Part shown: positions 6,801 to 64,000 of the stretch, piece by piece | Layout: each line of letters starts with the position of its first letter | Numbering within the stretch: the stretch's first letter is position 1 | NCBI GenBank assembly: GCA_973895155.1 | Contig: OZ316894.1 | Span: 21,547,867-21,611,866 of the forward strand | Direction: 5' to 3' | Length of the DNA: 64,000 nt | From: Marsupella aquatica | Taxonomy: Eukaryota; Plantae; Marchantiophyta | Translations under genes and position numbers: made by a program | Notes under the pieces: model-generated | Databases searched by the model: none | What the model was told of the DNA's origin: nothing | What the model saw: only the letters and a program-made list of their open reading frames with translations

Positions 6801-6921
6801 TCCGAACCCTTTTATAGTCTATGTCATCACTAGGGTATTTTTTTCTCGGAGGGCCACCATGTTGAGGAGGGCGCTTTCGCTGGTGTGAGGGACGATGACG
6901 TGGGTCATCCTCTGTACTCAT
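3855..6921 (-). pseudogene. Kolobok-type DDE transposase, 6 exons (6921-6523, 6298-6128, 6006-5421, 5218-4594, 4477-4326, 4201-3855), ~759 codons, with one in-frame TAG at 4656-4658
   Basis: All five introns are GT-AG and keep frame. Motifs: CHIPGC...SCGQHGH zinc finger, VYLDCRWDS (first D), EVIHDDK (second D), HKDLWHKAKN, DHWAGDHERC, and MSETFHSVMGKYAIKRIHF...ARLCCTAMDWNEN (E), matching Kolobok transposase signatures. Confidence 0.85.
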
Positions 6922-7274
6922 GGTGAAAAAATATAGTCTCTACCGCATTTGACTCAAATCATCAGCTGGAAAAAAGTTGGATGTCAAACACTTAGAAGTA
7001 CTAGCAAAATATCATTTAAAAACACATAACAAACAACAATGACCACATAGTGGTGCATTAATAATGTACAAGGTGGCTTTATGCCTCTTTATGCATGGTT
7101 CACCTCATGGCCAATGTACTCTTCTTTTCATTTTATGGGCTCCTCACAATTCTTTGTCTAAGCTCTCCTTTCATACACCGAGCACACATTCTTTGTAAAC
7201 ATACAGATTGTCAAAAGTAGTGGCTACTCCCTTCCTTCTAATGAACTAGTGTGCACATATTTTTTGGAAAAACA

Positions 7275-36016: not shown

Positions 36017-36876
36017 TCAAGAGAGATTGTTGGCCCGCTCGCACTCGTCGATCCAATCACTATACACATCAATTGGGTCGCTCAAAGCTGCATCACACAG
36101 AAACACGAAAAAGTGTGAGTGTTCAAGAAACAAGGTGAGCTAACATGTCCTAAGCGCAACGGACATGCCCCATGGTTTGGGGTTTCGGGGTTGACGTGTT
36201 TAAAGAGAAGACCCCTTTTGTCTCTACCCGCAGCAGAAATAAGCGATCTGATCCATGCAGAACCGAGAATCACAAATTGGAGCACGAAGAAGAGAATAAG
36301 CGATCTGATCCATGCAGAAATGAGAATCTCAAATTGGAGCACGGAGAAGAGAGAGAAGCTCCTTTGTCTCTACCCCCGGCCGATCTCGTCCACACACAGT
36401 TCAAAATCTCAAATTGAAGCACGGAGAAGAGACGTAAGGAAGTGGAAGGCCAAATAGGCAGAAAGGTTTAACCGAAAACCCTAAATTGGAGGACAGAACA
36501 GAGAAGCAACGAAGAATGGAGGCCTGATTGGTGCTGCCATCAGAACTTGAGCTGGAAACCCTAAATTCAAGCGTCAGCTGATTGCGTATAATCACTCGTC
36601 CATTCCTTTCATCTCTGTTTTCGCTCATCACCACTTCCACGCACAGGTCATTGTGGAATTCTACGAAAGCAGCCAAAAAGAGGTCGAGTTCGAACCGTCA
36701 ATGGTTGTGCTGAATTTCTCTTGGCAAATTCGACAGGAAGCCTCTCCGATCTGATTCTTTCGGTCCATTTTGCACTCCACGCTGTTGTCATGGTTGCAGA
36801 AGGGGCAACTGAACACGGTAGCCAATTTCTCCTGCCCTCTCTTCGGTGGAGCCTTAGCGGACTTCCTCTTCCCCAT
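36017..36876 (-). CDS. ELF1: Transcription elongation factor 1 homolog (Elf1 zinc ribbon), 2 exons 36876-36696 and 36087-36017; 83 aa
   Basis: MGKRKSAKAPPKRGQEKLATVFSCPFCNHDNSVECKMDRKNQIGEASCRICQEKFSTTID|ALSDPIDVYSDWIDECERANNLS*, with the canonical Elf1 CPFC...CRIC and PIDVYSDWID motifs. Confidence 0.95.
36236..36430. repeat. Intronic tandem repeat (~57-bp unit x2 plus partial) in the ELF1 intron
   Basis: AATAAGCGATCTGATCCATGCAGAA...GAGAATC(A/T)CAAATTGGAGCACG is repeated. Confidence 0.8.
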
Positions 36877-37301
36877 GATCACCTCCTCCGCCCCGTTCAC
36901 CACCAAATCGAGCTCGCAAAGCTGTCGTCTCGAGCAAACCCACAACACGAATCCTTCAAGTCGCAATCCAAAATTCTCCGCTGTGAGCAGCAATTCCGCC
37001 ACAAATTCTCGTCTCCGCAAATGTTGGTGCCACCGAAAGACCTTTCCGTTCCGAGCTCTGGCCTTTATGAGGACGTCTGGATTCAACCCAACTTCTCTTT
37101 TCGTGAATTGCTTGCGTGAATCCAGTGCAATAGAGCTGACGACTGTAGTCGTGGGCCATTTTTCTAGACTACAGGACTCGGTCTGCTTCGGGAGGACCAC
37201 AGCGGTGACTCATGAATTTACTATTCTTGGTAAGGGTGCAGCGCTTGGTTCTAGGGAAGCTAGTAAGGTTCCTTTGTTTGTTAGGGAAGTCTTCTTCCAT
37301 G

Positions 37302-42774: not shown

Positions 42775-45700
42775 ATGACATCGGCTGGAGTTCTTCCGTC
42801 GACTGCTGTGAGTCCTCCGATTGTCTCTACGTCTGCCTCCGCTTCGGCGAGCGCCAGTATCAGTTCGAGGTCCACTGCCAAGCCGGTGCAGAGTCTTGCA
42901 AATGGTTGGGCAGGACGGAGAACGTCGGCGCTCTCTGCCTCCTCTACATGGAGACGGACTTCGTTTCCGACGCATGTAGGGCTGAGGCAAGATGAAGCGG
43001 GAGAGAAGAATTTCGGGGGCAAGGTGCAGCCTCTACGGAGAACCATTCACGCGACTGCTCCTCGTGCGCAAGCTAATGACGGGAGGGTATGCCATACTCC
43101 ATTCCTCGTCGTTAAATTCGAACGTTTTTCCTCGTCTCTCGTTGTTTCTCTGTTATGTTCGTTCTTTGTCATTTTTAGGTTCAGTCTCAGCTGAATCTAA
43201 GTAGTCTTCGTGTGTGTTAAGTAGTTTGCTTTCCTGAATGAAGCGGGTTTCGATTATTTGTCAATTGCTTGAAGTAAGGGTGAATTTACAACATGTTGAA
43301 GGAAGTGCCTTCATTATTTGGATTCAATTCCCCCTCAATGCCTGATATTATCCACATCATTCGAGACCTAGATCCATTGTGGAGTCTCACTGCATCCTGG
43401 AATTGAAGCCATGCATGCCATTTGTCGTCCTTTCTTTGCATCGTTGATGCGGACTTGGTAACTGTTTGGCAGTCCAAAATTCTGGACGTTGTGATTTATG
43501 TCAGAGGGTTTAAAGTGCTGTCTAGTAAAGTTAACAGCGGAGATTGATTGGTCTTGTTTTGGGTTTTGGTAATGACTTTATGTCCGCAGATTAGTCAGAC
43601 GGAGTTCACTGACATGGCATGGCAAGCTGTTATCGCATCTCTCGATGTGGCGAAGGAGAGTAAGCAACAGATGGTCGAGACGGAGCATCTACTGAAAGCG
43701 CTGCTAGAACAGCGGAATGGGCTCGCTCGCCGGATTTTTGCTAAAGCCGGGGTTGACAATACCTCTCTTCTCAATGCTTCGGAGCGCTTCATTCAACGGC
43801 AACCGAAGGTATGTGACCATGATTGAATTCACATAACGGTCCTATGTTCGCATTTTGAAGTACTGATCAATTCTAATGTCTCAATGGTATTTCCTAAAGT
43901 TGAATGATCTCGTGTGCGATGTGTCTGATACAGAATCCTTGAAAATTTGGAAATTGATCGCCGTTTGAATGGTTATCATGTTGAGTACTGAAAGTTTTTA
44001 CATGAACACTCAGGTTACGGGGGATACTACTGGATCTGTCCTTGGGCGAGATTTAGAAGCTTTGATAGAGCGAGCAAGAGGTCAAAAGAAAACTATGGGA
44101 GATTCTTTCGTTTCTGTGGAGCACCTTGTACTCAGCTATCTCAAAGACCAGCGGTTTGGTCAGAACCTTTTCAAGGAGTTTAAAATTACTGAGCAGAGTT
44201 TGAAAGCTGCCATTGAAGCCATACGTGGCCCACAAAAGGTGACTGATCAAGGTAACTGTGCTACTCTCTGACAGTCATATCACCTCAGCTCCTCTTGTCA
44301 TCTCTGTCACCTCCTGCAACCTGGATACGATGACAATTGATTGATAGATCATTTAATTTAAGATTTTTTCATGGTTTCTCTCTTTCTTCCATTCTATCAT
44401 CCAACATTCTTTCTTGAGTTGCTTTCGTTTCCATGATTTTAGTGGCCCTTTGGCAAGATTCTTCTCAGGCTAGTCCAAGAGAGGAGAAAAAATAAACCCC
44501 ATTGTCCGAAAGAATGGGAAACCCGGATTGGTCACACTTACTCCCCTCTCCCAGTAGGGCGCCTGTTGTTCTTTGCTGTATTTTACAAACTTACTCATCC
44601 TAAAGTTTAGAGTGTAGTCCAGGTGATCTAGAGGTTCTCTGTGTTGTAGTCACAGTATCATTTTACATCTAATGATCACCTTCCATCCTTACCTCTCCGT
44701 TTCATTGTCACCCTGTACATCTGGGAGTCTACTTTGAAAATTCTCACATCTACTAAAATGCCTTATCTGATCGAAATTGGAAATCTGAATTCGTAGATGC
44801 TGAAGGAAAGTACGAAGCACTGGAAAAATATGGGATAGACTTGACAGAGTTGGCACGGCAAGGGAAATTGGATCCCGTCATCGGGCGAGATGATGAGGTT
44901 AGACGTTGCATTCAGATTCTCTCTCGGAGGACCAAAAACAATCCCGTTCTCATTGGTGAACCAGGAGTGGGTAAGACAGCAATATCTGAAGGGCTAGCCC
45001 AAAGGATAGTGCAAGGAGATGTTCCTCAAGCTCTCACCAATTGCAAGGTATATTTCACGTGCTTTCTCACGAGACTGATTTAATTTGATTTTAATAGAAA
45101 TTTGAGTTTTTTAATGTGTTGAAATCGAGGGCTGTTGTAGCAGATAAAAAAGTTCCAGATGGAAGTGCTTTCATGCAAGGATGCATTTCAAATTGCTGAG
45201 TTGTAAAAATGGCTTCCTCGTGCAGCTCATCTCCCTTGACATGGGTGCACTCATAGCCGGTGCCAAGATGCGTGGAGAGTTTGAAGATAGGTTGAAGGCA
45301 GTCCTGAAGGAGGTACAGGGGTCCAATGGAACGATCATTCTTTTCATCGACGAGATTCACACTGTTGTCGGCGCCGGTAATATGAAGTTGCATGGAGATT
45401 CTTAGTTTTTAACTAAAGACTAGTTTTAGTTGGCAAGACTAGCTTTAGAATAGGTTCCTGATAAGTGCACTGCAGAATTTTTTGATTGGTAGCGAAGATT
45501 AATCGTTTGAAGCTTTAGTTTAGAAACAAGGTGGATCGTAAATTGGGATTTTGTCCAGACAAGTGCATTGTGGACTCCTGAATGACTACCTCTTTGGAGC
45601 TTGATTTTAGGGAAAAGACGGAGCAACAGTCTTGTTCAATTATCTCATCGTCACGGTGGAATTCTGACTTTCCAGGCAAAGCCGATGGGGCTATGGATGC

Positions 45701-48506
45701 CGGAAACTTGCTGAAGCCAATGCTGGGAAGGGGAGAGCTGCGGTGCATTGGTGCCACAACTCTGGACGAGTATCGCAAGTACATAGAGAAAGATGCTGCC
45801 CTGGAGCGACGGTTCCAGCAAGTTTACGTTGACCAACCCTCTGTAGAAAACACAATCTCCATCCTTCGGGGCCTTCGTCAACGATACGAGCTGCATCATG
45901 CAGTTCGAATTTCTGATAGCGCCTTGGTGGAAGCTGCGGTGCTTTCAGATCGCTACATCAGCGATAGGTTCCTTCCTGATAAAGGTTCGTTCTCAACTGT
46001 TGTGTGTTTGTGTTGTATTGGGACGGTATCATTTTGCATCATTCGTTCCTCTGACAGGCGAAACTCAATGTTAAGTTAACCGGTTGAATGTTGAGGACGT
46101 CTATGTGACCGTCTGCTGCGGGATTCGAGCCTAACCCCTGAATTCGTTGCGTGGGTGGCATACAGCTATCGACTTGGTGGACGAAGCAGCAGCAAAATTG
46201 AAGATGGAGATTACTTCGAAGCCTACAGCATTGGATGAGATAGATCGAGCAGTCTTGAAATTAGAAATGGAGCGGTTGTCATTAGACAATGACACTGACA
46301 AAGGATCTCGGGACCGTCTCAGTAAGATTGTAAACGAGTTGAATCTCTGGAAGGAGAAGCAAAAGACGCTCACAGATCAATGGGAGCTTGAGAAGTCTGT
46401 CATGACACGAATCCAGTCAATTAAGGAAGAGGTAAACTCCGCAACCAATATCTATTGGAGTGAAAATTCTGCAGCATTTGAATTCAAGACTCGCACTCAA
46501 TTTTGAGGTTGGAGGGGCATTTCTTCAAACTAGACGTTCTGTCATACTGATAAATATTTGGTTGACGTTGACAGGTGGATAGAGTGAATCTAGAAATACA
46601 GCAAGCTGAACGTGACTACAATCTCAGCCGGGCCGCCGAGCTCAAGTACGGCAGTCTCATAACCCTCCAGAAGCAACTAGAGCAAGCAGAGAAGGGGTTG
46701 GACGAGTTTCGAGGAACTGGGAGGTCATTGCTTCGTGAGGAAGTGACCGGAGATGACATTGCAGAGATAGTGAGCAAATGGACAGGCATTCCATTGTCAA
46801 AATTGAAGCAGTCCGAGCGAGTAAAGCTCTTAAATCTGGACGAAGAGCTCCATAAACGTGTGATTGGTCAGGACCCAGCCGTGCGGTCTGTTGCAGAAGC
46901 GATCCAGCGCTCACGAGCTGGGCTTTCGGATCCCAATAAACCCATAGCGAGCTTCATGTTTATGGGCCCAACAGGTGTTGGGAAAACGGAGCTGGCTAAG
47001 GCGCTGACCGTTCATTTATTCGACACAGAGGAAGCATTAATCCGCATTGACATGAGCGAATACATGGAGAAACACTCTGTCTCCAGACTGATTGGTGCTC
47101 CCCCCGGATATGTAGGCTACGAAGAAGGTGGTCAGCTGACGGAAGCTGTGCGTCGTAGACCTTACTCGGTCCTCCTCTTCGATGAAATTGAGAAAGCACA
47201 TTCAGATGTGTTCAATCTCTTCCTCCAGATTCTCGATGACGGGCGAGTGACTGACTCGAGAGGAAGAACTGTGCATTTCAACAACACCATCATCATCATG
47301 ACGTCGAACGTGGGATCGCAATACGTTCTCAACAGTGCTGACGAGATGACATACGAGGCTATGAGAAACCGCGTGATGGAGGCTGCTAGGATGACTTTCC
47401 GACCTGAGTTCATGAACCGGGTGGATGAGTACATTGTATTCCAATCTCTCGACCGCGAGCAGATCAGCCGCATTGTAAAATTACAGGTATGTCTCTCTCA
47501 TTTGTCTTTGTAATTAAGCTAGACTAACAAGCAGTATTGTGGAGGGAGATCAAACCCTTAAAGATTTCGTCGCGGTCTGTAAGAGAGAGACCAGAGGACG
47601 AACAGTATAGAACTGTTACTTCGGAATTTCTGTAGTCATTAGTTTATCAGGCCCCATGAGTTGGATTCAGGGTTTCAAACGGATTTCGAATCAGACTCCT
47701 TGGAATTTTGTAGCAGTTTGTAAGAATGTACAGAGGACGGACTGTATAATGTATGAATGAGTGTTGCGGGGTTTCGTCAGTCATTAAGTTGGAAGCGGTT
47801 TTCAGAGGGATTGTGTTGAAGAAATAGCATGACTGAATGAACGTATACTGATAATGTACTAGAAAGATAAAATGGTTACTGCTGACTTGGTTTCTACTTG
47901 ACTTGATAGAGAGGCCCTGGAGCTGTCCACTCTGTAGGTTAACACTGGATTTGAGTCCTATCTGAGATTATCAGTCATCGAGCTGATCGAACGTCTAAAC
48001 TTTCCGAGAGCTAAAGTCATTTTGGGCTATATTTATTGATTTGAATTACTGGAACTAGAGTCGAGGAGGCTTTTTGTTTGTAAATTTGGTTTTCAAACAA
48101 AACGTGACGTGATCTTGTAAATCTGATTCGATGTTCCCTCTTTTTGGAATTGCGTTTGCAGTTGAATAGAGTACAAAAGAGACTTGACAGCAAGAAGATA
48201 ACTTTGAAGGTAAGCGACACAGCAATTTCACTACTGGCGAATCTCGGCTACGACCCCAATTATGGTGCTAGGCCTGTGAAGAGGGTGATTCAGCAACATG
48301 TAGAAAACGAGCTGGCAAAAGGCATTCTTAGAGGAGACTTCAAGGAGGACGACAAAATTCTGGCGGACACAACTCTCACAGCAGTCGATGGTGCTTCTCT
48401 CCCACAACTGAAGTTGTCGTTCACCAGGATAGAATCTGATGATGACTCTCCTCAGGAGCCCGACGTGGATCCACCTAAATATGCTGCCAGCTCTCTCAAC
48501 GCCTAA
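42775..48506 (+). CDS. CLPB3: Plastid-targeted ClpB/Hsp100 chaperone (ClpB3-like), 9 exons: 42775-43086, 43590-43808, 44014-44251, 44797-45047, 45226-45376, 45676-45984, 46166-46431, 46575-47486, 48162-48506
   Basis: Ser/Ala/Thr-rich transit peptide, Clp-N repeats ([17 protein letters not shown]), NBD1 [15 protein letters not shown], middle coiled coil, NBD2 [18 protein letters not shown], and GARPVKR. All junctions are GT-AG and in frame. Confidence 0.95.
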
Positions 48507-49202
48507 GATGGTAAATCTTAGTCAACTACCACGTATTTCTAATTGCAACACGGGTTTGTTTGGCAGCATTCCTGACTGAGCATGAGCCTTCGTTAGAGTG
48601 CTGTGAACTGGGATCGGATAGTTAACATTTTCTTCCTGAACATGCTGAGGAAGCCGCTAACCGATCTATCAGGATCTGAGGTTATTAAGGTGGTAGGCAT
48701 TATAGCTTCGTTTATTTATGGACGTGAGCTGAGCGACAGCTCCATGCTAGTAGAGTCCCGGGCCCGGAGAAACGTTGAGGTCAAGATAGGCAACCGTCTC
48801 CAGCTTGCACGTTCAGAAGGGTGTATTATAAGCAGCGACTTATAATTATCCTTTAGATTAAGAATGTTTGTATCATAGACATCGATTACCAAATATACCA
48901 CTTCGGAATAGGAAATAAATCCTACTTCCTGCAAATTGGGTGGAAGTTGTAACTGTCGTTCAGATTTTGTTCTCCTCAATGATGTTTGGTCAATGTCCCG
49001 CTTAGTAGCATTAAATTAAACTGATTGAAAAAAAAAGCCGATTGCAAAATATCGCATTGACACACCGATTAGATCGACCTGGCATTTTAGCTCCATGTCA
49101 AAATGAATTGAACCCACAATTCTGCGGAAAGTCACTTTTTCCATTTGGTCTCTTTCATCTGTTCAATAACAGCAAAACCGCGTTTGCAAAAAATCTTCAA
49201 AT

Positions 49203-49800
49203 GGCATGCAGCTGGGGACACACCTCTCGCCATTTGGCACGGATCGAAGCAATCCACAGTTGAAGCGTCGCACATCTTCACCGAGTACAAGACAGTCAGG
49301 CCCTTTTCCTTGTCTCCAGAGCATTCACCCAAAGGCTACCAATTTTGTTGCATCCTGGCGTACATCTGGAGACACACCCCTCCCCATCTCGCACGGATCG
49401 AAGCAGTCCAGAGTTGAAGCGTCGCACATCTTCATCGAGTACAAGACAATCAGGCCCTTTCCCTTGTCTCCAGAAGATTCACCGAAGGGTTACTAATTTT
49501 GTTGCATCCTGGCGTACAGCTGGAGACACACCATCGCCAGACACACCCCTCGCCATCTGGCACGGATCGACGCAATCCAGATTTCAAGCGTCGCACATCT
49601 TCATTGAGTATTGAGTATTGAGTATATATATAACAATCAGGCCCCCTTCTCGTCTCTCGTCTCCAGATCCTTGCATCGAAGGCCTACAAAAACTATATAT
49701 ACGGCATCACGGCATACGGCTGGAAACACAGCCCCCGCCCTTTGTCAAGCGTCGAAGCAATCCAGAGGTGAAGCGTCTCACCTCTTCATCGAGCATGTGA
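49203..49800. repeat. Tandem repeat, ~154-bp unit x4 (last copy diverged)
   Basis: GGC(A/G)T(G/A)CAGCTGG(G/A)GACACACC...CACGGATCGAAGCAATCCA...GAAGCGTCGCACATCTTCA at ~49203, 49357, 49511 and 49711. Confidence 0.88.
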
Positions 49801-50779
49801 CGATTCGGCCCTCGACTCCCCTCCCTCCTCCCTTCTCCGGGAATTCTACGTGCTCCTCAGCAAGATCTTTATTGATTTCAGAGTTAGAATGAATTCATCG
49901 TGAAGCCTGCAGAAAAATTAGAATGAATTCATTCTGAAGCCTGGCGAAAAATCGTCAAACCATTCATCCTGTGACAAAGTCGGCAACAATCAGTGAAATT
50001 CGAATCAATCAATGGTGAAACCATTCATCCTGTGACAAGGTCAAAACATATTCTCGGTGGAATTGGAATGAATCAATAAATGTGGAATCTGGATGAACAG
50101 CTACGAGACATGAGATTGGAATGAATCAATAAATGTGAAATCTGGATGAACAGCTACGACACATGAGACTGGAGTATATGACATGTGAGATTATGTCAAA
50201 TGGAGGACAAGCTGTGGGGCCTCGTCCCCCACGTCTAATATCACTCTTATTTACCATCAACAACACCCACCGTATTTGTAAACATGCCTGAATGGTGAAT
50301 ATTGTTCAGTAAAGCCACCTTTGCCTCAACAAGTATTGTCGGGAGCAGTACTCAATAATCAAGCTTCCAATAGGCCATCACCTTCACCTCTATAAGCTGA
50401 TTGAGGAGCATAATTTTGAGGGTCAAATCAACCGCAAGCTTCCCTATCTACGAGTCCACTCCGCTTGTTTCCTTCGATACATCAAATTGTGAGAGTTTGC
50501 AGCCCAATAACTTACGAGGAGACCTCTTTGGATTGGGACGAAGAGCATCAATGAGTTGTATGGACTTGACAGTTGACAAAAACGTAGTGATGCAATACAC
50601 AATAACATTGGTGAGACTTCTTTAAGGAGACTACCTACCGAGCTCTTTGAAGAGGGACAACAGTCCAGCCTGTGTATCCGAGCAGGATCTATCACCTCTT
50701 GTTTTGAGGTGCAGCATCATTTTGAGTACTTCTGAAGAGGGATGGAACTCCACATTTTCAGTAGAGGGGACTCGACGTC

Positions 50780-52240
50780 AATGATAGCCACCTCCAATAT
50801 TATATATGGAGTCTTTTATGTTTATGACTAACAACATCCATCATCTTTACGTAAACTCAATAGACACTTGAAAACTTGATCGAGAAACTACACCTTTGAT
50901 GGCCAACCATGTATGTCACTCAAGAGCGAAAAACTGGGCTTCAGTGATAGCCACCTGGAGAGTTCAGTGCCAAAGGTACCATCCTCTCTGATTATGACCA
51001 ACAATAACCATCATTTTTACATCAACTCAGTAGACACTTCAAAACCTGTGAAACTACTACCCTTTGGCCAACCATGTATTGCATTGAACAAGGAAGCCAT
51101 AGGCTTCAATGATAGCCATCTGGAGAGTTCAATACCAAAGACACCATCTATTCTAACTGTGACCATCAATACCCATCATCTTTACATCAACTCAATATAT
51201 TTTTCCCAACGTGAGAACTAGAACCCTTTGGCCAACCTTGTATGACACTGAACAAGCTAGGGAAGATCTAGGCTTCAATGATAGCCATATGGAGAGTTCA
51301 CTGTCAAAGAAGCTGTTTATTCTAACTCTGACCATCAACACCCATCATCTTTACATTAACTCAAAAAATGTTCCCAAACCTGAGAATTATAACCCTTTGG
51401 CCAACCTTGTATGACACTGAACAGGCTAGGGAAGGCACCATCAACACCCATCATCTTTAATTACATCAACTCAAAGAATTAGTCCGAACCTGAGAATTAC
51501 AACCCTTTGGCAGACCATGTATGACACTGAATAGGCTAGGGAAGACCTGGGCTTCAATGGTAGTTATCTGGAGAGTTCAGTGCCAAAGACATGATGGACT
51601 ATTCTGATTGACTGTGACCATCAACACCCATCATCTTTACATCAACTCAAAGGATTCTTTCGAACCTGAGAATTACAACCCTTTGGCCCACCTTGTATGA
51701 CATTGAACAGGCTAGGGAAGACCTGGACTTCAATGATAGCCATCTGGAGAGTTCAGTGCCAAAGATATCTTCTATTCTAACTCTGATCATCAACACCCAT
51801 CATCTTTACATCAACTCAAAAAATCTTTCCAAACTTGAGAATTTTAACCCTTTGGTGCCAACCTTGTATGACACTGAACAGGCTAGGGAAGACAGCCTAG
51901 CTTCAATAATTATAGCCATCTGGAGAGTTTAGTGCCAAATTAAGACACCGTCTATTTTAATTGTGACCATCAACACCCATCATCTTTACATCAACTCAAA
52001 ATGTTTTTTCCAAACCTGAGAATTACAACCCTTTGGCCAACCTTGTATGACACTGAACAGGCTAGGGAAGACAGCCTAGCTTCAATAATTATAGCCATCT
52101 GGAGAGTTTAGTGCCAAATTAAGACACCGTCTATTTTAATTGTGACCATCAACACCCATCATCTTTACACCAGCTCAATACTAGACAGTTCAAAACTTGA
52201 GAAGTCACAAGCTAGGCCTTGGCCAACCATGTATGCCATT
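50780..52240. repeat. Tandem satellite-like array, ~165-180-bp unit, ~8-9 copies
   Basis: GGCTTCAATGATAGCCATCTGGAGAGTTCAGTGCCAAAG...ACCATCAACACCCATCATCTTTACATCAACTCAA...AACCCTTTGGCCAACCTTGTATGACACTGAACAGGCTAGGGAAG repeats, and the last two units are near-identical. Confidence 0.92.
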
Positions 52241-53770
52241 GTTAAAAAACAAAGAGCCAGAGTGTTCCTGGTTAAACATGTGTCAATATGATCATGGCTT
52301 TGCAAATCAATGTGTGAAAATAGTGGTCATCACATACTTTGTTATCTTTTCATTGTTCCCTAAAAGCCTACCGTAGTCTTTAGTCCCAATATTATGAAGT
52401 AGAGGGTACCCTTCAATCTTTTGCCGTAATTTTGAATGAGTGGGCTTTGATCACCCACTCGTAACACTCGTAACTCACGCCTAGGCATATTTTGTCCCTG
52501 AATTGGTACCTCAAGGTCTGCCCAGCACTATAGCCCCCACCATCAACCGTTGTGACTGTGTTGCAAATCATGGATGTAGTGTGATGCTTGCAAAAGATGT
52601 CTTTGTGCAAAAGATGTTGTGAATGAAGTCATTGAATGAGAAAAATAAGTGTTGTGGAGGCAAGTTGAACTCCTAAGCCCTATGTGAAGGCCGCTTGCAA
52701 GGCCTACCCCCATGCATGCAATTAGTACATTTTATGCTATTTTGAAACAGAAAACTCTGTGTCTAGAGGTGGTTGCTAAACATTGACCAGACTGAGCAAT
52801 CATCAAAATTTTGGTCATCCCTTGAATGATGGGAGACCAGTCGGGTCATTATGTCTCATTCAAATCATGTTTATTGTGTATTTTTATTTTTATTTGCGTT
52901 TGATAAAGTGCATCTTTGTGCTATGGAATTTTGGAAATGTTTCCTCCAACACCCCCCGTGTATAGTTCACTTTAAAGCTGGAAGTCAAGGTGCTTGCGCT
53001 ATTGTTGATCTATTTTCTATAACTGCAATTCTTGGGCAAACTAAACCCTAGGGTTTAATGGCACAATCTTTCTTACTCCGAACCGAATCAGTTACCCTAA
53101 ATCAGAACTTTTCTTATAAACCTTCACCGAATTGTCATATAGCATGATCTTTTAATATTGCAAAGAGTGGGTGCACACCCTACTGACATGAGTTTTCTGG
53201 ATTTTGACTTTGGTTATGAAGACGAACAATGTCCGTAATTGTGAACAGGGCGTCAAGTAATCGGCCCTGATCATTTTCTGCAGCTGACTATGGCGACCCA
53301 ATACGACTCCGAAGACTTGGCGACTCTGCTGAAACCCTTCCATGACCGCGCCAAACTTGCGGAGGTAAAGTTTGTTATGTCTGAAACCCTCAATGATTTA
53401 AGTTGATTCTTATAGACCTCGGAGGTTGTAGAGGTGTACGTGTCTGGATTGAATCCTACCCAGCATTGCACTAATGTTTTCGAGGACGAGAGTTTTTCCA
53501 TTACCTCTTGCTGTTGCTGTTGGTTCCAGTCGTGGTTTTGTGGAGGTGATTTGCAAAATTGGACTTGGCTTAGAATTAGAAACCCTTAGTTGACAATGAA
53601 TTCTCTCCTGATTAATTGCTTTGGAAGACGGGTCTAGCAAGAAATTGGGTGAAGAGTGGCTCATGGTTTTTGAAATTCGACTTGGCTTATAATTGTAGTA
53701 ATTTACAATACTAACTGTTATTATTTTTATAAATATTTCACTAAAACACTATGCTCTGGAAATAGGGCAT

Positions 53771-56600
53771 TTAGTATTTACAAGAACAGCTTCTTTGTAC
53801 CCTAAACCTATTAAAACTGGGGTTGGTTTCCATGCAGAGTTCATATAAAGCTAATTTTGACTCGCAGCTAGGGAAGAGCAGATTTCTTCTTGGGCAAGAT
53901 TGCATTGACAACTTTATGTCGTGATGAGAACCCATCAAGTACAAGCAAAGCTTCAAATGGAGGGGAATTAAATAAGACCGTGCTTCTAAACTGTGAAATC
54001 TTTCTTCATCACACTAAAATTTTCAGAATGAGCATTCTGAGCAGCTTTGATGTGAGATATCTTGTCTTGGGAACCTGTTGACAAAGGAAATGATACATAT
54101 CATCAAATGACAAATCTTGAGAGAGCTATGGTTCTCTTTTAGCCATTGTTCTGCTGCAGCTACTGGGCTGTTTGTACATGGAGCACCTGACCCCAGCAGA
54201 GCTTCTCAGGTTTGTCCGCCTCACCTTCTTCTCCTAAGACTTTGCTCCGTTTGTTGAGAAACAGACTGATTCCTTTGTTTTTTCCACTTAGAGTTTTGGG
54301 TTTTGGGTTTAAGTATTGTTTGGTATGGATCGAATGGCCTCGGTCTGATAACTTGTCCCATGGCAGATTCTTAGAAGAAGAGGCCAACACACTTCAATTG
54401 AGGAACGCAAAGATCGCTGATCAGCTCCACTGCCTTCACGTCTGTTTGGCACATGTCCTTTCCCGCTGAATTGAGATCGAGTCTCCTGGCATGAACCTAA
54501 ACCCTCGCATGATCGTCCATCATGACAAGCAATTTAGCAGATGGTGACTCTATTGAGCGATCGTTGACAAGAGAACTACGTTCATACGTGTCCTGAATGA
54601 AAATGGCATAAATTCTTATTGTGAGTCAAACAAGGAAAGGCTGATTCTTCGACCTCACTAAAGATGAAACTCAAACCCTGAACCCTGAATTTTACTTGAA
54701 GAATGGCTGTGACTCGCTCTAGTGTGAATATGCTATTCTGCAGGTCGAAGAAGAGTTTTTCAGTTGGCAGTTGTTGGATTTAGACAAAGCAATCGAAAGA
54801 TCTTCTGTTGTCCTTTTTGGGTCCGGCCAGAGGAACCAGGTAACGACACATGCATAATTATCTCAAATTTCTATTTCGATTCCAATAAAGGTGGAGAGTG
54901 TTTCTGTTTATAAGTTGCCGTAATGTGACCTTTGGTTGGTACTAACAGGGTTTTAACGTGGATATGGACAATGAAGACAATTTTCAAGACAAGATACTTG
55001 ACTGAAGGATTTGAACCTCATTCCACTGTACCCAATGGATCTACTGACCAAGCACTAAACTCAAAACCAAAGCTTCACGAGAGTCCCGAAACACGAAATA
55101 GTTCAGGTACAGGTGGACAGGTGAGCCGCTGTCACTATTTTTCAACTTTGTTCAAATTTTGGTTACCTACATTGTCTCCATTCATACTGAAGGCCGTGTA
55201 AATCTCTGTGACTTCCATGTTTCCAGCAGAGTTACTGGATAGATGGCCAACCTTGTAGAGAACAATCCTCAGACGATTGCCATGGATGAAGTCTATACTG
55301 TTTAGCTGAAAGAAGATTACTAAGAAAGGAGTTGGTTCGAGTGTCTGTTAGTCGATGGGGAGCTAAAATGTCTGATACTTTCGGCTCGCTCAAGAATATT
55401 TAAATTCCTTCAGATATGCTCAATTTTTTCCTCATGCAGTTCGACAATGTAGTCGTGACCTGCCTTTGTGGAAACAGTTCCCATTGGCCGCAAAAGACCA
55501 TTGTAGGAGCCAAAGTAGTTTTTTGTCCAATTCCAGTAAATTTTATCCATTAATTCCGTATCTGTAAGGCTGACCTCCTTTTTTGGGATACTTTTTGAGG
55601 ATGTTTTGTACATTGAATATTGGAACCCAGTGAGGCAACTGAACTTGAAAGTGACCACAACATGGCGGAGGATTTGCAAGGTCAGCAACAAGAACAGGAA
55701 GTTATAAACCTTAAAGAACTGTCACCGCCTCACCATACCTTTGGGAGGAGGCCATCTCGATGACCAGCCAGGCTTCAGGACTAGAAACAAGAAGTGAATT
55801 GAACACAAGATCTGACGAAGGTTGTGGACTCTGAACTGTAGCTGGTCGGTTATTGAACCTCAACTGAACGATGGGAGGTGTCCATGGGAATGGTGCTTAA
55901 GGTGATATATTTGAACTGAAAGGTGCTCGGCCAGGTTTAAGCAGCTTAATTTGAGATTTGAGAATTCTAGGTTGAAGACCCTCCCATGCTCACAAACGTA
56001 GTGCCAAGCTGATTTGTAACTTCTTGTTGGCAACTGCTTCCAATTGCAATGAATGCATGTAAATAAGAGGTTAGAACTAACAAGGTAGAGCACATTCGAC
56101 ACATTGAGGGGAGTAAGGACACATTCAAGAAGGAACTCATCAACGTCAAGGCAGACTTTGGTCAACAGCCTAGCTATTACCGCACCTCCAGATTGAGATT
56201 GGAAAGTAAATTGTACAAAGATCAGGGAGACCAATATATTGTCTCAGTTGGGAGCATATGTCCTTAACTCTGGTAGGGAATGGGCACCAATTCTTTTTAA
56301 TTTCCTTTTCCAAAGCATCATACTGTAAGAGTAGTATTGATCGTTTGAGCTATGCTTGTCCTAAGGGACTGCCAGAGGCCTCATTAAGTGCCTGTTCAGC
56401 AGCTCTTTGCCGTTTCCTGTATCTTTTTCAGTCACCTGCCAAATTGGACTCCGTTCCTTGTCCTAAGCAATCCAGCAAACCCTAAGCCTCATGTCTTTGT
56501 TGCCACCAAAAATATCTCCTACTGGACTCAAATCACCCCTAGGCGACCTGCATTGCGTACAAGAACATGCCGGGGTCGGGTTCTAGGTGGGGGGAAATTG
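53771..56600 (-). pseudogene. Degraded multi-exon coding region of unknown function, downstream of and co-oriented with the MTase gene
   Basis: Protein-like minus-strand stretches broken by stops and frameshifts, e.g. KRYRKRQRAAEQALNEASGSPLGQA*LKRSILLLQYDALEKEIKKNWCPFP, VIARLLTKVCLDVDEFLLECVL, and KIYWNWTKNYFGSYNGLLRPMG. No recognisable domain. Confidence 0.35.
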
Positions 56601-56742
56601 GGTGTATTTCCTTACCAACCTCACAAGACAGTGTTTTTTGGTTTGGATTGACCATGGTCTCTAAATTGCCATAAATAACAAAATGTACCCCTCTCTGAGG
56701 AATGATGAAGATTACTGTTAAGATATCTGAATGGGCATCACA

Positions 56743-56910
56743 TTGAACCACCACTCTCCATATAAAAGGAGAAGTGTCCAAGACCCTTCACTTTTTCACA
56801 TTTCTCTTCTCTGGAGTGAGGCTTTGCTCCACAATTTCAAGAAAATGATACTAAAAATGGTGAAACCTGGTGCATGGAACCAGGTTTTGTCATGGACAGT
56901 GGCGCTTTAA
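56743..56910 (-). mobile_element. Kolobok-derived MITE, copy 3 (reverse orientation, most diverged)
   Basis: TTGAACCACC...TATAAAAGGAGAAGTGTCCAAGACC...TTTGCTCCACAATTT...GAAAAT...AATGGT...GTGGCGCTTTAA aligns to the reverse complement of 27963-28133 and has similar length. Confidence 0.65.
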
Positions 56911-57897
56911 GCTAGTACTCACATTTCACTGAAAAGGGGAATAGTCCAACCTGCCCTCTTTTTCCACATTTCCTCTGGCATGAGCATAAGCTACTGACAT
57001 TTCGCTGAAAAGGGGAATAGTCCAACCTGCCCTCTTCTTCCACGTTTCCTCTGGCACAAGCATCAAATTGACCAGAGATAATGAGTGATGCACAAAGGGC
57101 CACTCATAACAATCTTCTTGGTCCTAACTTGGAAGACTTCTAAATTCAAATCAGCAATGATGCAAAGAAAGATGGCTTTGTTCCGAAACACTGAGAAGAA
57201 TGCAACTTATGTCCCAAAAGCATCCCGTTCATATTTTCAGTTCATTGTAGTTCTTCAGATGTTAGAATACTTTTGACAATCCCTTGTTAAATGGGACTCT
57301 ATTAAATTCTTGTAGTTCTCTAGATGTATATATACATGTTCCTCAGTATCAATTATTCCTATTGTGAAGCTTGATCCTTAAAAGAATCTATGCTCTCAGA
57401 TTGAAATTCTCAGTATTTGCACATGACCTTTTAACATAGCAGGCCTTAAAACTTGGGACATCATGAAAGGGTGTTGGAGAGCAAATTATAATCATTATAT
57501 ATGCATATACGACGAATCCATAAATCGAGAGATTGAATCCATAAGTCGAGAGAGTAATCTATAATTATCAGACCAGAACAAGAAGCCTTAAGGGATGAGT
57601 CCAAAGCCTTATTTCTCTTTTCAAAATCTTCATGATATTAAAAAATGTGTACCAAAAAACCACCAAAAAATGGTATGTATTTTCCAAACTAGACTCAAGA
57701 GAATTTTACCACCAAAATCTAAGCATATCTTATATGATATTCTCACAATTGTATAAACCTTGAAATATGCACTTTATAAAAGTAATCAAAATCAAACTCA
57801 TCGATCAGAGTTTAAGTCAAACTCAAAGTTTTACAAAATATAACCCAACTTAAGCCCAAGTGGTTTCAAATGCTACGAGTCCCTCTATTTACCTAGT

Positions 57898-60800
57898 CTA
57901 ATCCAAAGGGACCGCTTCCCCTTCCTCGGTTCTGGAAGTCCCTGTCGTCAATTCTGGAACAATTGTGGCATCGTCAACCACGCTATCCTCTCCGGCCTGA
58001 GGAATGTCTTCCTCACTCTCCTCATCCGTCTCCCCCTGTCCGTCTTCCTCTTCAATGTTATCTGCAAGGTTAAGAATCCTCCCTTTCAACACACTGCTCT
58101 GTCGCTCGTCAATCTCAATGGCAACGCAATGTCTCCCCATGGCCAAGGAGGAGGTTGTCCCAGTCCCTGATCCTGAACAAATATCCAAAACCCAGTCTCC
58201 AACCTCACTAAAATGACTCACTTCCCAATCTAACAATGCACGTGGTTTCTGATAAACATTCACTGCCTTGTTATCCCCGTTGTGTTTCAGCTTCTTAGTC
58301 ACAGCTGCGCATACAACCACATTGTTCCTTGATTCATTTGTGTCAAAATTGAAGTGCTCCAATGACCGTTTACCATCCTGGCTGTGAAAGCCAATTGTAA
58401 AGCACTCAAAGTTGCTGTTCAATCTTGGTCCACCAGCATTCTTCACATTATCCTTAACCCTGAAAAGTCACAAAAAGTCAAGGAGTTATTTAAACTTAGA
58501 AACATGGTTCATGAAATCATGAATAACTAATAGTTGTTTTTTTCAAAAACAAATATTTCTTACCACACACAATTCTGGAACCCTCCATTACACTCCGCTT
58601 TCAAAACGGTCTTGATGGCCTCATATTGGTCAAGGCTGTGGTGAATGATAATACGCCACAACTTTGCAGTAGTAGCCACCTTGAACGATTGGACCATTTT
58701 TGTGATCTCCTCAGTTCCCCATCCAATAGTGTCCTCATGAAGACATCCAGGCAATGCAAACCCGTAGGGAATATCCACTAAAGCTAATGTGTAAGCCCGA
58801 CCCGGAACCACCTCATGTAATCGCTGAGCATCATGAGTAAAAATATCATAGTGCACATCACCAAACTCTGGATGCTCAAACGAATTTGGATGAAGTTCCC
58901 CCTCTTGGGTTTGCCGACTAGAAGTCTTCATGGATAGCCAATTTTGGGCTTGCACAATATGCGCATTGAATTTTTCCGGGAATGACTGGAGATCTTTGCC
59001 TTCCTCATCTCCCTTCTTTTTTCGGGAGGTGGTATCTTTCTACAAAAAAGAACTGTACAATTAGAAACAAGGATTCCAAATATTAAATGAATTCAAACAA
59101 TCATTCGAAGAAAGGTGACAGAATCTTACCCATGTCTGGAAAACAGGTACGAAATTCTTAAGCACATTGTCTGTGCAATGCTCAGGGTACTTGGTTTTAC
59201 AACCTGACCAACTCTCCTCGTGTAGACACGTGAGGAAGGCCTTCTGCACCTGCATCTGAAATTTGTGTCGAGTAAATTCGTGACCCATTTCCTGTAAAGA
59301 GAGTTCTTTAGTAAGAACTCTCTGTAACACTGGGCAAATCATATCAGGATCTTTCAAGGCCTGCATGTGTCTCCACTCTGTTAATTTCATGTCCTCATAA
59401 GGCAATTTGGCATCTCCAGACTTAGAGACTTTCTTCTTGCCCTTGTCTCCTTTTTTACCTTTGATCTCACACATCTCCCACTTGTCACAAATCTGCCTCA
59501 CAAATGACCACACAGGATCTTGTCGGAATGCCAACTGAAAAAGGTTATCATTGGCATTAAGAACCTCAGCATCCTTTTGTACACCCCAATCCTTGAGATT
59601 GATTTCAGTAGCACACTCTTTCTTGAAATCCTGGTTGGACGACAATCCATTCTCAACAAATCTCATGTGAATATAATTTACTCTCTGGATTGTCGTCATC
59701 TGTTGTCAAAATTCAGAATCAATATTGTGACTCCACGCCAGGTTTCTTGCCTCTTGCACAGTCAATCCCGCAAATATCCAAGATTGCACTCTCCGAAATG
59801 CCTTGTTGTTAGGGAACTGAAGAGCAAGGTCTGCTTTGGCACAGGCTGAATGGTTGCCCCCAATCACATAATAATGGTAATCAGCTTTCCTTGAAAAATC
59901 AAAGTCTTGCCTAGTAGCACACTCCTTCGGATCCACCAAGAGGACAAACGGAGCTGCAAGTGGACTGGCACCTACAGTCTTCATACGCAAGGTCAATTGG
60001 GTCAAGAAATATGGTTGGATGTGTCGGACCTGGTAAATGGGCAAGCCCACAGCCTTCTCTCTCACTGGAGGGTAAAGTTGACCAATGTCAACGATCACGG
60101 TCTCCTCTTGAACACCACATCTTCCTAGAATCTCCTCCTGGTACAATACCCGTGCATCCATTGACATTGATTGAGCCTTTTGCTCCAAATGCGTTGGAAT
60201 TTTCTCCAAAGTCTTCTTTTTTGACTTTGGAGCACTGGGCTCGGTAGGCTCAGGAGTCATAGCAGGTCGCTTCTTTGAAGAAATGCGAGTTCCAGTCGTA
60301 CCTTGTGCCGACCCACCAGTCAAAGTTGTTCCCTAGGATGATCTGCCAACTTGAGATCCCCCTCCAGATGCTGCTGCTTCCCGGGAGGTTGTAGGCGCTA
60401 CCATGGTCAAAATATCATCGGGTAAAATGCTAGGCCTGGATCCAGAAGGAACACCAGAAGCCCCAAATTTGGGTGGACGACTTACCCCCTTCTTTGCCGA
60501 CCTTTTCCGGAGAATCTCTCTTGATTTTCGGATTGCACTCTTTAAAGTGCTAGGGTGAAATTCGAACACAAAACCGGAAATTTTTCCCGCGACATCGTGG
60601 TAACATTCCTCACTCGAAAGAGACTTGACAGTCTCAATGATGCTATCGATGTCCTCATCGAGATAGCAGGTGGCAGCCGTTCCAGAAAACATCTCCACAT
60701 CCACGACAATCAAAGTTGACGTTTCCTTCGTTGTGATCAACATGTTCACAACTTCGTCGCCCCGTCGAAATACATCGATGCGGCCGTAATTTACCCACCC

Positions 60801-60959
60801 TAATGCCCCCAATGGAAGCCCCTCAAATACACACAGCATTAGGAAGGGCTTCTTCCATGTTTCCGTCCCTAAGGAAATTGTCCAGGATGAGTTGTGGAAG
60901 TCCGTCAAAGGATGGCGCGAAAAGATGTCATCCACCAGCTCTTCCTGCGACATTGTCAT
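57898..60959 (-). pseudogene. ParB/Srx-like domain fused to beta-class N6-adenine/N4-cytosine DNA methyltransferase; 3 exons (60959-59130, 59039-58564, 58459-57898), ~955 codons, two in-frame stops (60333-60335 TAG, 59706-59708 TGA)
   Basis: The five minus-strand ORFs join into one reading frame via two GT-AG introns and read-through of two stops. ParB-like: VDIGQLYPP...YQVRHI...PFVLLVD...YYVIGGNHSACAK...EARNLAWSHN. MTase in beta order: LALVDIPYG (motif IV), CVWVKDN...E (spanning the splice junction), NVYQKPRALL (motif X), GDWVLDICSGSGT (motif I), GRHCVAIEID (motif II). Confidence 0.88.
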
Positions 60960-61737
60960 GTTTTTGCCTGATCTTCAAACCTGAGAACATACCACAAAAT
61001 CAGTCCACTTCAACCCCAACCTGCGAGACAAAGTGCCACAGAACCAAGGAATGTGCCAACAAATGGCTACTAAAACCGTGTCCTTACGGATCTAACAACG
61101 CTCTCGGCCACCCTAGGACTCCTATCATGAATTCATGAAGGGAGTCTCCCTCTCGCTCCGACCTTCATGAATTCATGAAGGGAGTCTCCTCTCTCTTTGC
61201 TTGTACACCTCGGTGATGCAGAAGGGTATTTAAAATAGGGTTCGGAGGGGGGTGACGTGAAGAAATCACCCAGGGCCTAAATTACTACCTAAAACAGGGT
61301 CGAAATGAAGTGCGACCGCGACAACTCGCGACACGTCGCCGATGAGTGCTGAAAATGGCACGAAATTGGACAGCGAGATTGTTTTTCACTCTTTTACAAA
61401 GGAAATCCAATGACATTGAGTGAAAATGAATGGGTTGCCCCGTGTTCCTTGGTTATACATACTAATCACGGATCAGGCGCGACTTAGTAAAATTAACCCC
61501 GAATCATGATAAATCAATGTTTTTGGGCCAATTATTCATGAATATTTCGGGGTATTAACGGGAAAAAGCTTGCAAATTTCATGAATATTTGATATTTTTG
61601 AAGTTAAAAAGTCCCAACAATCCGTGAAAAACTATAAATAGGCTCGTTTATTCATGACTCTTGGTCATTATTTTGAGAAGATTTGTTAGATTTTACTGAT
61701 TTTCTGAGTTTCTTGTCAATTTGCACTAGTTTTTCCA
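60960..61737. promoter_or_regulatory. Putative bidirectional promoter between the MTase gene and the transposase gene, with palindromic TCATGAATTCATGA sites
   Basis: 778-bp divergent intergenic region with CTATAAATAG TATA-like box (~61632-61641) upstream of the transposase. Palindromes at 61117-61146 and 61162-61181. Confidence 0.45.
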
Positions 61738-64000
61738 ATGGCGGCATGTTACGAATCAGATGATTATTCAGATGGAGTTTCTGATGATGTTTCATTGCCG
61801 GATGGCCCCTACACAGTGGTTGGCCCAGATATCCCTGGAATAACTACTGTTTTAGATATGCCACCCCCCACCCCTATGAGCAAGTTAAAACGTAGTCCTT
61901 TACGACTTGCAATTAGTGGGAAGAAATCATTGGTCGGTGGTAAAGAGAGGTCAGGGAGCTCCTCTGACTCCTTGGAGAGTATTGGTCCCCCTGGACGTCA
62001 AGTTGTATCTCCTTTGTCACCAACAAAGGACAAATTGGGGAGTAATCTGGAAGGTTCAATGCCTATTTGGATGTCTGGGAAACGGTCTCATGAATTCATG
62101 AAGACTGGATTTGGAAAGACGAAGAAGGCACTAAGTGGGGAAAATGACAGAGATTTTTGCAGTCTCCAAAGTGTTCAGCGGCTGAAGCAAATGCCAAAAA
62201 GTAAAACCTTTGGTAAGCCAACGTCGGAAACATTTCACAGGGGGATGAGGGAAGAAACTAGACGACCAGTGTTATTGAAAAGTATTCCAGAAAAGAATTC
62301 TAATGTGCGTTCCTCAGTTTTACCTAGGAGTCATGGTGTTGGGGCAGGGAGCGGATCAAGTCACGGAAACTCAAACAGGGAAACCAACCTGGTGGAGAGG
62401 GACCCTAGGAAAATATTGAAAGGGTCCCTACAAGGTAATGGAGGGATTTCTGAAATACGCCCAGGTATTCCAAGGGTGCATAGAGTGAAGGAAGAGCCTC
62501 CATCTCCGAAGGCTGCAGGTCTGGAATCTAGGCATGTTCAGAAGCAAATGTTGGTGACCATTTCATCATCGAATGAAAGCGAGTCTTCGGAGAGTGGGGA
62601 GGATGATGATGTTCCGATGGCATCTAGTCATTACAAACATACGAGCAACGCCACTTTGTGTGAAACAAAGTTGAAAGAGGAGGATATCAAGAAAACAAAT
62701 AGTAAGTACTGTTGTCAGAGTCATTGTCTCCTAAGTCTATCTCCAAAAGAAATTCGTGAGGCGCGTTCTAAATTTTTGAGGCAGAAATCTCAGGATCGAT
62801 CTTTATCTTTGCAGTGGCTTATAAAGCGAGACGGAAATGAAGGAGGGAGGCAAACTATATCTTACACGTTTGGTCAAAAGAGTATTTGTCGGAAAGCTTT
62901 CAAGCTTATATTTTGCGTTGGCAATCATAGATTAAATAGAATTTTGAAATTAGACAACCAAGACTTAGGATATTCTAAACCAGTTGGACGCCCTCCATCT
63001 GTTAAAAGATTAGTCTTGGTCAGTTGGCTTAGGTCGTTTTTTGAGACACGCGTGGAAACATTGCCAAATAAAGAAGTTTCACATTTACCGGATAATTATT
63101 CAAAGCTGGAGGTATGGAAGATCTACGACTCCAACTATGCCAAGATTGATGAATCTTCAAAAATATCCTATCGACAATTCTTGAAAGTTTGGGTTCAAGA
63201 ATTTGGTCATGTGAAGATTCCTCCAGTCAATCGATTCAGTGCTTGCGCGGATTGCGAGGAGTTCAAATCAATTCGGGACAAAGCTGTCTCGGAGACCGAA
63301 AAGAGTAAGTTACTTACAAGATTGACAAGTTTTTGTTTCAAGAATATGGCTTAACACATGATTTCTAATTTTTTTTGAAGAAACTAACAAGTTGTTTTTC
63401 CAGGGCGAGGGGAAATTATGTTACAAAAACATAGAGACCAACAATCCAAAGAACGTGAGAAACTCGCGAAGCATCGTAAGAAATGTTTTTCAAATTCTGA
63501 TAAATATTTGGGAGTTGTCATTGATGGGATGGATCAGAAGAAGACAAGGTTGCCTCATTGGCCGCGGCCCCCAAAATCGGTGGACGAAACATGTTTGATC
63601 CAAATGCACGTTGTCGGATGCCTGGTTTTCAATGGTGCACTATTTTCAAGAGTGTTTCTTAATTATCCTGTATTGCATAATGATGGAAACTTGACAGTCA
63701 CAATCCTGCAAAGGGTGTTTCACGAATGGGAAGAAAAGCCTGGTGGCTTGCCGCCTGTTCTCTATCTTCAACTTGATAGTACCAGTAGAGAAAATAAAAA
63801 TAATTTACTCTTTGCCTATCTTCATATGTTGATTCGAAGAAAGGTTTTTCGGAAAATCAAACTAGGATTCTTGTTGGTTGGACACACACACGACCAAATA
63901 GATCAAATGTTCAGTCGATTTTCTAAACGACTAGCAAGGTTTAAGGCATTCACATACGAAAGCCTATGTGATATTATTTGTGAATCATATCAACCCCAAC
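61738..64000 (+). CDS. DUF7869-type / Sola-like DDD-DDE transposase, partial (exons 61738-63304 and 63404 to beyond window end)
   Basis: Intron 63305-63403 (GTAAGT...TTCCAG) joins the 538-aa ORF to an open frame: RFSACADC (Cys motif), VIDGMDQKKTRLPHW, LYLQLDSTSRENKNN, FLLVGHTHDQIDQMFSRF. These are three acidic catalytic-type motifs of an RNase-H-fold transposase. There are no stops up to the window end. Confidence 0.82.

Follow-up and report, generated by a model that had tools for sequence, protein, structure and literature searches.

A decayed copy of a putative two-gene transposon with a ParB-methyltransferase gene and a DUF7869 transposase gene in the liverwort Marsupella aquatica

The question raised by the right-hand end of this stretch of Marsupella aquatica DNA (contig OZ316894.1, positions 21,547,867 to 21,611,866; 64,000 nucleotides, here called the window) is why a liverwort should carry, head-to-head with a transposase gene, a spliced gene in which a ParB-like module is joined to a DNA amino-methyltransferase. 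The explanation to which we give a probability of about one half is that the window holds a decayed copy of a land-plant two-gene cut-and-paste transposon, in which the intact ParB-methylase protein would dock on palindromes of the element and methylate the element DNA, most likely at adenine N6.

The methyltransferase gene is located on the minus strand and consists of three exons (60959-59130, 59039-58564 and 58459-57898), together 955 codons, separated by two GT-AG introns of 90 nt (intron 1, 59129-59040) and 104 nt (intron 2, 58563-58460). Many alternative splice combinations also preserve the reading frame. The chosen exon model is fixed by the positions of both introns, which are identical in three of three related loci, and by the gene calls of homologues, which read into intron 1 at the identical tryptophan. 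The three loci, designated L001-L003, are metagenomic sequences of 2.0-4.8 kb obtained among 28 pattern matches, and each of them has the two introns and the three exon parts. L001 (about 2140-2330) and L002 (about 1000-1120) have one further intron, towards the 5' end of the gene, which the window copy is without. Exon 1 (codons 1-610) encodes a conserved N-terminal domain, a low-complexity linker and the ParB-like module. The N-terminal domain (codons 1-150, W-x-x-x-LG...GRID) is kept in close relatives and has no match in Pfam. Exon 2 encodes catalytic motif IV, and exon 3 encodes QKP, the motif I that binds S-adenosylmethionine, an acidic tail and the stop codon. The original prediction, made from the letters of the DNA, described a spliced minus-strand gene of about 955 codons with a ParB/Srx-like segment and a full set of methyltransferase motifs, and all of these were recovered: YYVIGGNHS at codon 363, DIPY at 699, WVK (the predicted WxK) at 769, where it is divided by intron 2, QKP at 839 and DICSGSGT at 861.

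The gene copy in the window is a pseudogene. Two premature in-frame stops are found, a TAG at codon 209 (60333-60335, minus strand) within the poorly conserved linker and a TGA at codon 418 (59706-59708, minus strand), a position occupied by arginine in 12 of 12 close homologues. A rereading of the codon 209 stop as an intron acceptor was rejected, because codon 418 is also a stop and the gene is still broken. The observed to expected ratio of CpG is depleted in the ParB region (0.37 versus 0.61 in the host part), and both stops would match the expected outcome of C-to-T changes at CHG and CG sites. A premature stop is found in L001 as well. Between the window copy and L001-L003 the proportion of synonymous differences (pS) is 0.51-0.84, which is saturated, versus a proportion of nonsynonymous differences (pN) of 0.10-0.30, and this holds for each of the three exon parts. 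DIPY and QKP are retained in all four copies, while motif I has changed once in L001 and once in L003. The saturated synonymous sites, the low pN and the retention of these two motifs show that the ancestors of the four copies had a methylase subject to purifying selection.

Judged by its sequence, the methylase end of the protein is a beta-class amino-methyltransferase nearest to N6-adenine (N6A) enzymes. Exon 3 alone scores above the Pfam cut-off for N6_N4_Mtase (PF01555; E 2.2e-8, 34.8 bits against a cut-off of 26.7), and the motif order is that of the beta class, with motif IV (699) before motif I (861). With the family profile the best-scoring enzymes are of the beta-class N6A type (5hek, E 1.4e-10; CcrM, 3.6e-10; MboIIA, 3.7e-7), with weaker matches to the N4-cytosine (N4C) enzymes N4CMT (E 4.7e-4) and PvuII (E 0.37). 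According to the DN4MT1 and N4CMT literature, specificity has switched repeatedly between N6A and N4C in this domain. Seven of 52 scanned relatives exceed the PF01555 cut-off, which confirms the fusion of ParB module and methylase within single proteins.

The family had also been proposed as the vehicle that brought amino-methyltransferases, such as DN4MT1 of Marchantia, into bryophytes. Both are beta-class amino-methyltransferases in liverworts, and DN4MT1 and the bdelloid N4CMT resemble the present enzyme in being of bacterial type in eukaryotes. However, in the accessible descriptions the two are host genes with SPPY motifs that make N4-methylcytosine (4mC), have no ParB module and are not presented as transposon cargo. 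DN4MT1 has TSPPY and no added domains, whereas in the present family a ParB module precedes D-[IFALV]-P-Y and the similarity to N4C enzymes is lower than that to N6A enzymes. A delivery of DN4MT1-type enzymes by this family is highly improbable.

The ParB likeness of exon 1 is seen in the predicted fold. No family was found for exon 1 in Pfam, PHROGs or NCBIfam, so that the likeness goes undetected by Pfam, and the best match of a ParB-region profile among the sequences of the Protein Data Bank was Spo0J at only E 1.7. An AlphaFold2 model of codons 250-610, built from 100 aligned sequences, had a predicted local distance difference test score (pLDDT) of 90.7. With this model Foldseek returned 14 chains at E<=0.001, of which those listed were all Noc or ParB (E 2.7e-5 for the ParB/Srx fold). 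Codons 285-416 (59712-60107, minus strand) align with the N-terminal, CTPase-type fold of ParB (7bm8_A; VIA Z 9.4, root-mean-square deviation (rmsd) 2.4, 98 aligned). Codons 419-567 (59259-59705, minus strand) resemble the helical parS-binding domain of ParB/Spo0J (4umk_A, parS-bound; VIA Z 6.2, rmsd 4.2, 99 aligned), a middling value for a helical domain, and also 6s6h_A, likewise parS-bound (VIA Z 4.4, rmsd 4.6, 97 aligned). The ParB/Srx and methyltransferase folds that had been expected are accordingly those obtained by structure prediction and by Pfam. The family has GG-N-H-[S/T] in place of the GxxR of ParB, and at 370 or 371 the four most frequent residues do not include arginine, the register being taken from the motif. 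In ParB the arginine of GxxR is required for nucleotide binding, according to bioRxiv 10.1101/2025.10.10.680097. Since this residue is not conserved, a CTP switch or CTP-driven sliding clamp is doubtful in the ParB-methylase family.

The family is like ParB/Noc and their parS/NBS sites in the two predicted ParB domains, of which the helical one has the middling match, and in palindromic sites of similar length, and is unlike them in sequence (9-19% identity), in GGNH[S/T] for GxxR and in being a spliced eukaryotic gene. Atlas neighbours of the ParB part, which are leads only, comprise DUF3723 clusters (31-47% of members) and ParB_N clusters (32%). The DUF3723 clusters near the ParB part (59709-60200, minus strand) are fungal. 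DUF3723 is known as Starship cargo, and may be a ParB-type accessory protein as well. Phage clusters combining ParB_N and N6_N4 are Atlas neighbours of a full-length relative (scores 0.86-0.87), and are also no more than leads.

The start codons of the methylase gene (60959) and of its partner (61738) are arranged head-to-head across a divergent intergenic region of 778 bp (60960-61737), the layout and distance of the original prediction. The partner, on the plus strand, begins with an exon (61738-63304) that encodes a low-complexity N-terminus and, from about residue 310, a conserved region containing cysteines. After its one intron (63305-63403, GT-AG, 99 nt), exon 2 (63404-64000) encodes a DUF7869 core (PF25273, E 1.1e-43) with a candidate aspartate triad (DGMD, QLD, HDQID) and continues past the window; no stop interrupts the frame in the 721 codons that the window includes. 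The label Sola-like, given to this gene in the original prediction, is provisional. The fold was modelled on the best relative, P0165, which is 81% identical over the window core (pLDDT 88.7). RNase H-fold matches of this model in Foldseek were weak, none reaching E<=0.001, and in a wide structure search of 48,161 chains the best were Mos1, Metnase and intasomes (Z 8.6, 8.3 and 8.2). The three aspartates, Asp47, Asp131 and Asp173, are retained in 52 of 54, 63 of 63 and 61 of 61 rows. The partner is predicted from the model to be a DDE/D transposase with an RNase H fold and an acidic triad.

Comparison with related loci suggests that the two genes are likely linked in the clade of the window. 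In L001 a divergent open reading frame (ORF) is present 1.0 kb upstream of the methylase gene, and 15 of its first 21 residues agree with the start of the window transposase; the runner-up among 4,146 Met-started 21-mers matches at seven. P0165 and an exon 1 homologue, P0005, are each found on a single Logan contig, of 8,829 bp in both cases, and judging from this equal size alone they are probably on the same contig. In Riccia sorocarpa the top match to the methylase gene, R1sor_010796, adjoins R1sor_010795, the second-best Riccia match to DUF7869. The pair thus recurs, as had been anticipated. The self-marking two-gene module of the original prediction stands as regards the folds and this recurrence; it is weakened by the two stops, then unmentioned, which make the methylase gene of the window a pseudogene.

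The region of the two genes also contains a conserved palindrome. The window has exactly four copies of the 14-bp sequence TCATG-N4-CATGA, all within this region, and its 57 kb of host DNA has none; the mean in shuffled sequences is 0.14, and four copies were reached in none of 100 shuffles. With one mismatch allowed the enrichment is weak (nine loose palindromes against a mean of 4.0, a result reached in three of 100 shuffles). One site is found in intron 2 (58509-58522), where it is the sole conserved block besides the splice signals in four of four copies, and intron 1 is without it. Two sites form a pair upstream of the methylase gene (61125-61138 and 61165-61178), with a spacing of 40, 40 and 42 bp in the window, L001 and L002, the three sequences that reach there. 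Its distance from the start codon of the partner is 559 and 599 bp in the window and 541 and 581 bp in L001. The fourth site (62088-62101) lies within the 5' coding region of the transposase, as it does in L001. The AT-rich 3' flank of the methylase gene (57440-57897) has two TCATGA half-sites (57461 and 57630) and is probably still element DNA.

The outer centre bases of the palindrome are complementary in 12 of 12 sites and the centre is fully self-complementary in nine of the 12, although paired sites are not independent; it is CTAG in all three L002 sites and consists of A/T in the other copies. A self-complementary centre would suit a two-fold protein site better than the loop of an RNA hairpin, and a role as RNA hairpin is therefore disfavoured. 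The palindrome, with its constant placement in related copies, is likely a docking site of intact ParB-methylase proteins. It can also be supposed that the element is a two-gene transposon in which the transposase or a host factor recognizes the palindromes, while the ParB-methylase acts without them or elsewhere. Transposases commonly bind repeated internal motifs, the two half-sites are close to the presumed left end, and the arginine of the ParB P-motif is not retained. Nevertheless, the palindromes are spread over intron, intergenic and coding sequence and are not at an end, and the accessory protein has a predicted domain resembling a binder of 14-16 bp palindromes. Inverted-repeat arrays moreover adjoin genes with a ParB domain in Plavaka elements, whose transposase is unrelated. 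Reading of the sites by the transposase or a host factor thus appears unlikely.

Several observations weigh against a two-gene element with a palindrome-docking methylase. The L001 contig stops before the catalytic domain of the partner, which has a BLAST match at only E 0.13 and matches none of 100 other transposases. Only one of 32 Riccia methylase-family tags adjoins any of the 34 listed DUF7869 tags, the lists being incomplete, and one such neighbour has a chance probability of about 0.08 if 27,000 tags are assumed. Adjacency was seen neither for one additional Riccia tag nor for the Adiantum and Ginkgo tags seen. No element end or target-site duplication (TSD) was found, the right end being beyond the window; no terminal inverted repeat (TIR) emerged when 44000-64000 was searched for repeats, and the window and L003 have no left terminus in common. 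A CAGGCC stretch near 57440 that resembles the tail of L003 is at chance level. The peptide footprint of the palindrome is absent from all of 100 other transposases and 196 methylase-family proteins, and the palindrome may therefore be confined to this clade. The match of the helical domain is middling (Z 4.4-6.2). Finally, the second residue of motif IV varies, with DIPY here, DFPY, DLPY, DAPY and DVPY in relatives and DVPN in Ptychodera.

The variation at motif IV would suit an accessory protein that binds the palindromes as a non-catalytic regulator or scaffold, its methylase domain merely gripping DNA, and the methylase domains of DIRS1 elements are described as likely inactive. On the other hand, D-x-P-Y, QKP and motif I are retained from Chara to ferns and liverworts, and the motifs persist in the four close copies at saturated synonymous divergence apart from the single motif I changes in L001 and L003. 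We consider a purely non-catalytic role quite unlikely. The 31 Riccia tags without a listed DUF7869 neighbour could instead mean that two independent mobile or host genes stand side by side and that the methylase travels with other transposases or none; algal relatives are indeed carried by other transposase families. This is very unlikely in view of L001, with its equal head-to-head layout and start peptide at saturated synonymous distance, of the single palindrome type that spans both genes, and of the same pairing in Ectocarpus as far as it is described. From the L001 and Logan evidence set against the one Riccia tag in 32, linkage is likely within this clade and may or may not extend to the rest of the family.

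In the two-gene transposon that we favour, the genes would move together and the helical domain of ParB, rather than the transposase, would read the palindrome as a dimer, as ParB does on parS. The intact protein would then methylate adenines in the element, and the mark may keep the shared divergent promoter active or tune transposition, as VANC proteins do on their own VANDAL elements. The transposase frame of this copy is open to the window edge. The methylase gene is dead, and its function could be supplied solely in trans. A wider proposal, which is tentative and rather doubtful, is that the lineage from Chara through liverworts and ferns to Ginkgo repurposed ParB-parS as a self-marking system. 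The ParB-methylase would be loaded at TCATG-N4-CATGA sites specific to the element and would write N6-methyladenine (6mA) on the promoter and introns of the element itself, possibly at CATG half-sites. The mark would serve to evade silencing or to permit transposition, and site and reader would co-evolve from family to family.

The family is widely distributed. The exon 1 profile gave 437 clusters at E<=0.001, and among 30 clusters looked up ten were from Chara braunii, four from Riccia sorocarpa, four from Adiantum nelumboides, two from Ginkgo and three from hemichordates. Among named relatives the nearest, at 60% identity, belongs to the liverwort Calypogeia fissa. In Riccia at least 32 methylase-family copies are annotated across eight sequences, mostly fragments, and not the single-copy paralogs that would have spoken against a mobile element. 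The family is supported as multi-copy, dispersed and often decayed, and not a single-copy host gene. In a FastTree phylogeny with midpoint root (48 of 100 rows kept) the window groups with Calypogeia, while Riccia, Adiantum with Ginkgo, Chara and the hemichordates are separate; its deeper nodes have weak support, and the tree is not read as evidence of an origin or a direction. The hemichordate relatives (Ptychodera and Saccoglossus; P0121, P0106, P0163 and P0295) form their own clade, in which P0121, with DVPN at motif IV, may be inactive. P0072 is a fusion of an N-terminal sterile alpha motif domain with the helical portion of the ParB module.

No relatives were found in viral contigs, nor in prokaryote genomes by a pattern-based search, which distant relatives would escape, and in the 25 of 574 tblastn matches listed, those to phages span the methylase part alone (23-29% identity). 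Because no such relatives were found in these searches and the introns are conserved, both bacterial contamination and an endogenous virus were rejected, in agreement with the earlier view of an integrated eukaryotic gene.

The design has precedents. In Sola1-1_Ec32 of the brown alga Ectocarpus, a gene on the opposite strand encodes a ParB-like domain and an N4C/N6A methyltransferase in 1104 amino acids (Dinatale et al. 2025, PMC12477816). The protein was proposed to bind and modify its own element sequence, and the authors point to similar proteins on transposons of green and red algae (PMC12477816). The statement in the original prediction that Sola elements carry only a transposase is therefore out of date, and the design is not novel. 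By description the present element is like Sola1-1_Ec32 in that the methylase gene is opposite in strand to the transposase gene, with 955 codons here against 1104 amino acids. The Ectocarpus element is 21.5 kb long with AACCG termini, a 282-bp TIR and a 4-bp TSD, and no binding site is mentioned in its available description, whereas the present one is a broken copy from a land plant with a conserved palindrome.

In Bostrychia, Petroll et al. proposed inverted repeats of a Plavaka element as the binding sites of a ParB protein that the same element encodes (bioRxiv 10.1101/2025.02.11.637652). The Bostrychia accessory genes PAG2 and PAG3 are likewise transposon cargo with an N6-methylase (PF01555) and a ParB-like domain, with inverted-repeat arrays adjoining the ParB gene as proposed sites. 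They differ in their EnSpm/Plavaka transposase, in having methylase-SET and ParB-2-oxoglutarate oxygenase in separate genes, and in sites in tandem arrays, as opposed to the single palindromes at fixed positions found here.

In Arabidopsis the introns and intergenic regions of VANDAL elements contain a short motif to which VANC21 binds (PMC5735166). The location of an accessory-protein motif in introns and intergenic regions is the same here, where binding is predicted. VANDAL is, however, a Mutator-type element whose 9-base motif is in the same orientation in tandem repeats, and VANC removes 5-methylcytosine (5mC) and adds no mark. We know of no ParB or methylase domain in VANC.

Iyer et al. 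2016 listed N6A methylases linked to ParB or to transposons in algae, fungi and Trichomonas, with few in land plants, virus-borne Mariner elements with methylases have been reported (PMC3627910), and Sola is rare among active elements in a plant-wide survey (PMC12973397). No land-plant report of this element or palindrome was found in the literature, with subscription papers and Repbase entries outside the search. What is apparently new is the land-plant occurrence and the candidate palindrome at fixed positions, the design itself having been described in algae. In the available accounts the algal transposon-borne ParB-methylases were noted from sequence alone, with neither site nor activity shown. 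Intact land-plant motifs together with a precise candidate site mean that long-read modification data of liverworts and ferns could test for transposon-written 6mA or 4mC. This bears on how transposons evade 5mC silencing and on the source of adenine methylation in plant DNA, which is disputed. If the self-marking reading is true, land plants have a real, site-specific, transposon-made adenine mark in their DNA.

The window has a GC content of about 43%. A spliced ClpB-like gene (45582-48506, plus strand) and an Elf1 gene (36664-37209, minus strand) are ordinary host genes. Three ORF pieces at 4656-6939 (minus strand) have no Pfam match above cut-off; we take them to resemble a fragmented Mutator-type transposase with a SAP-like motif. 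Tandem arrays between 49196 and 52241 are degenerate, with a unit length of about 154-185 bp.

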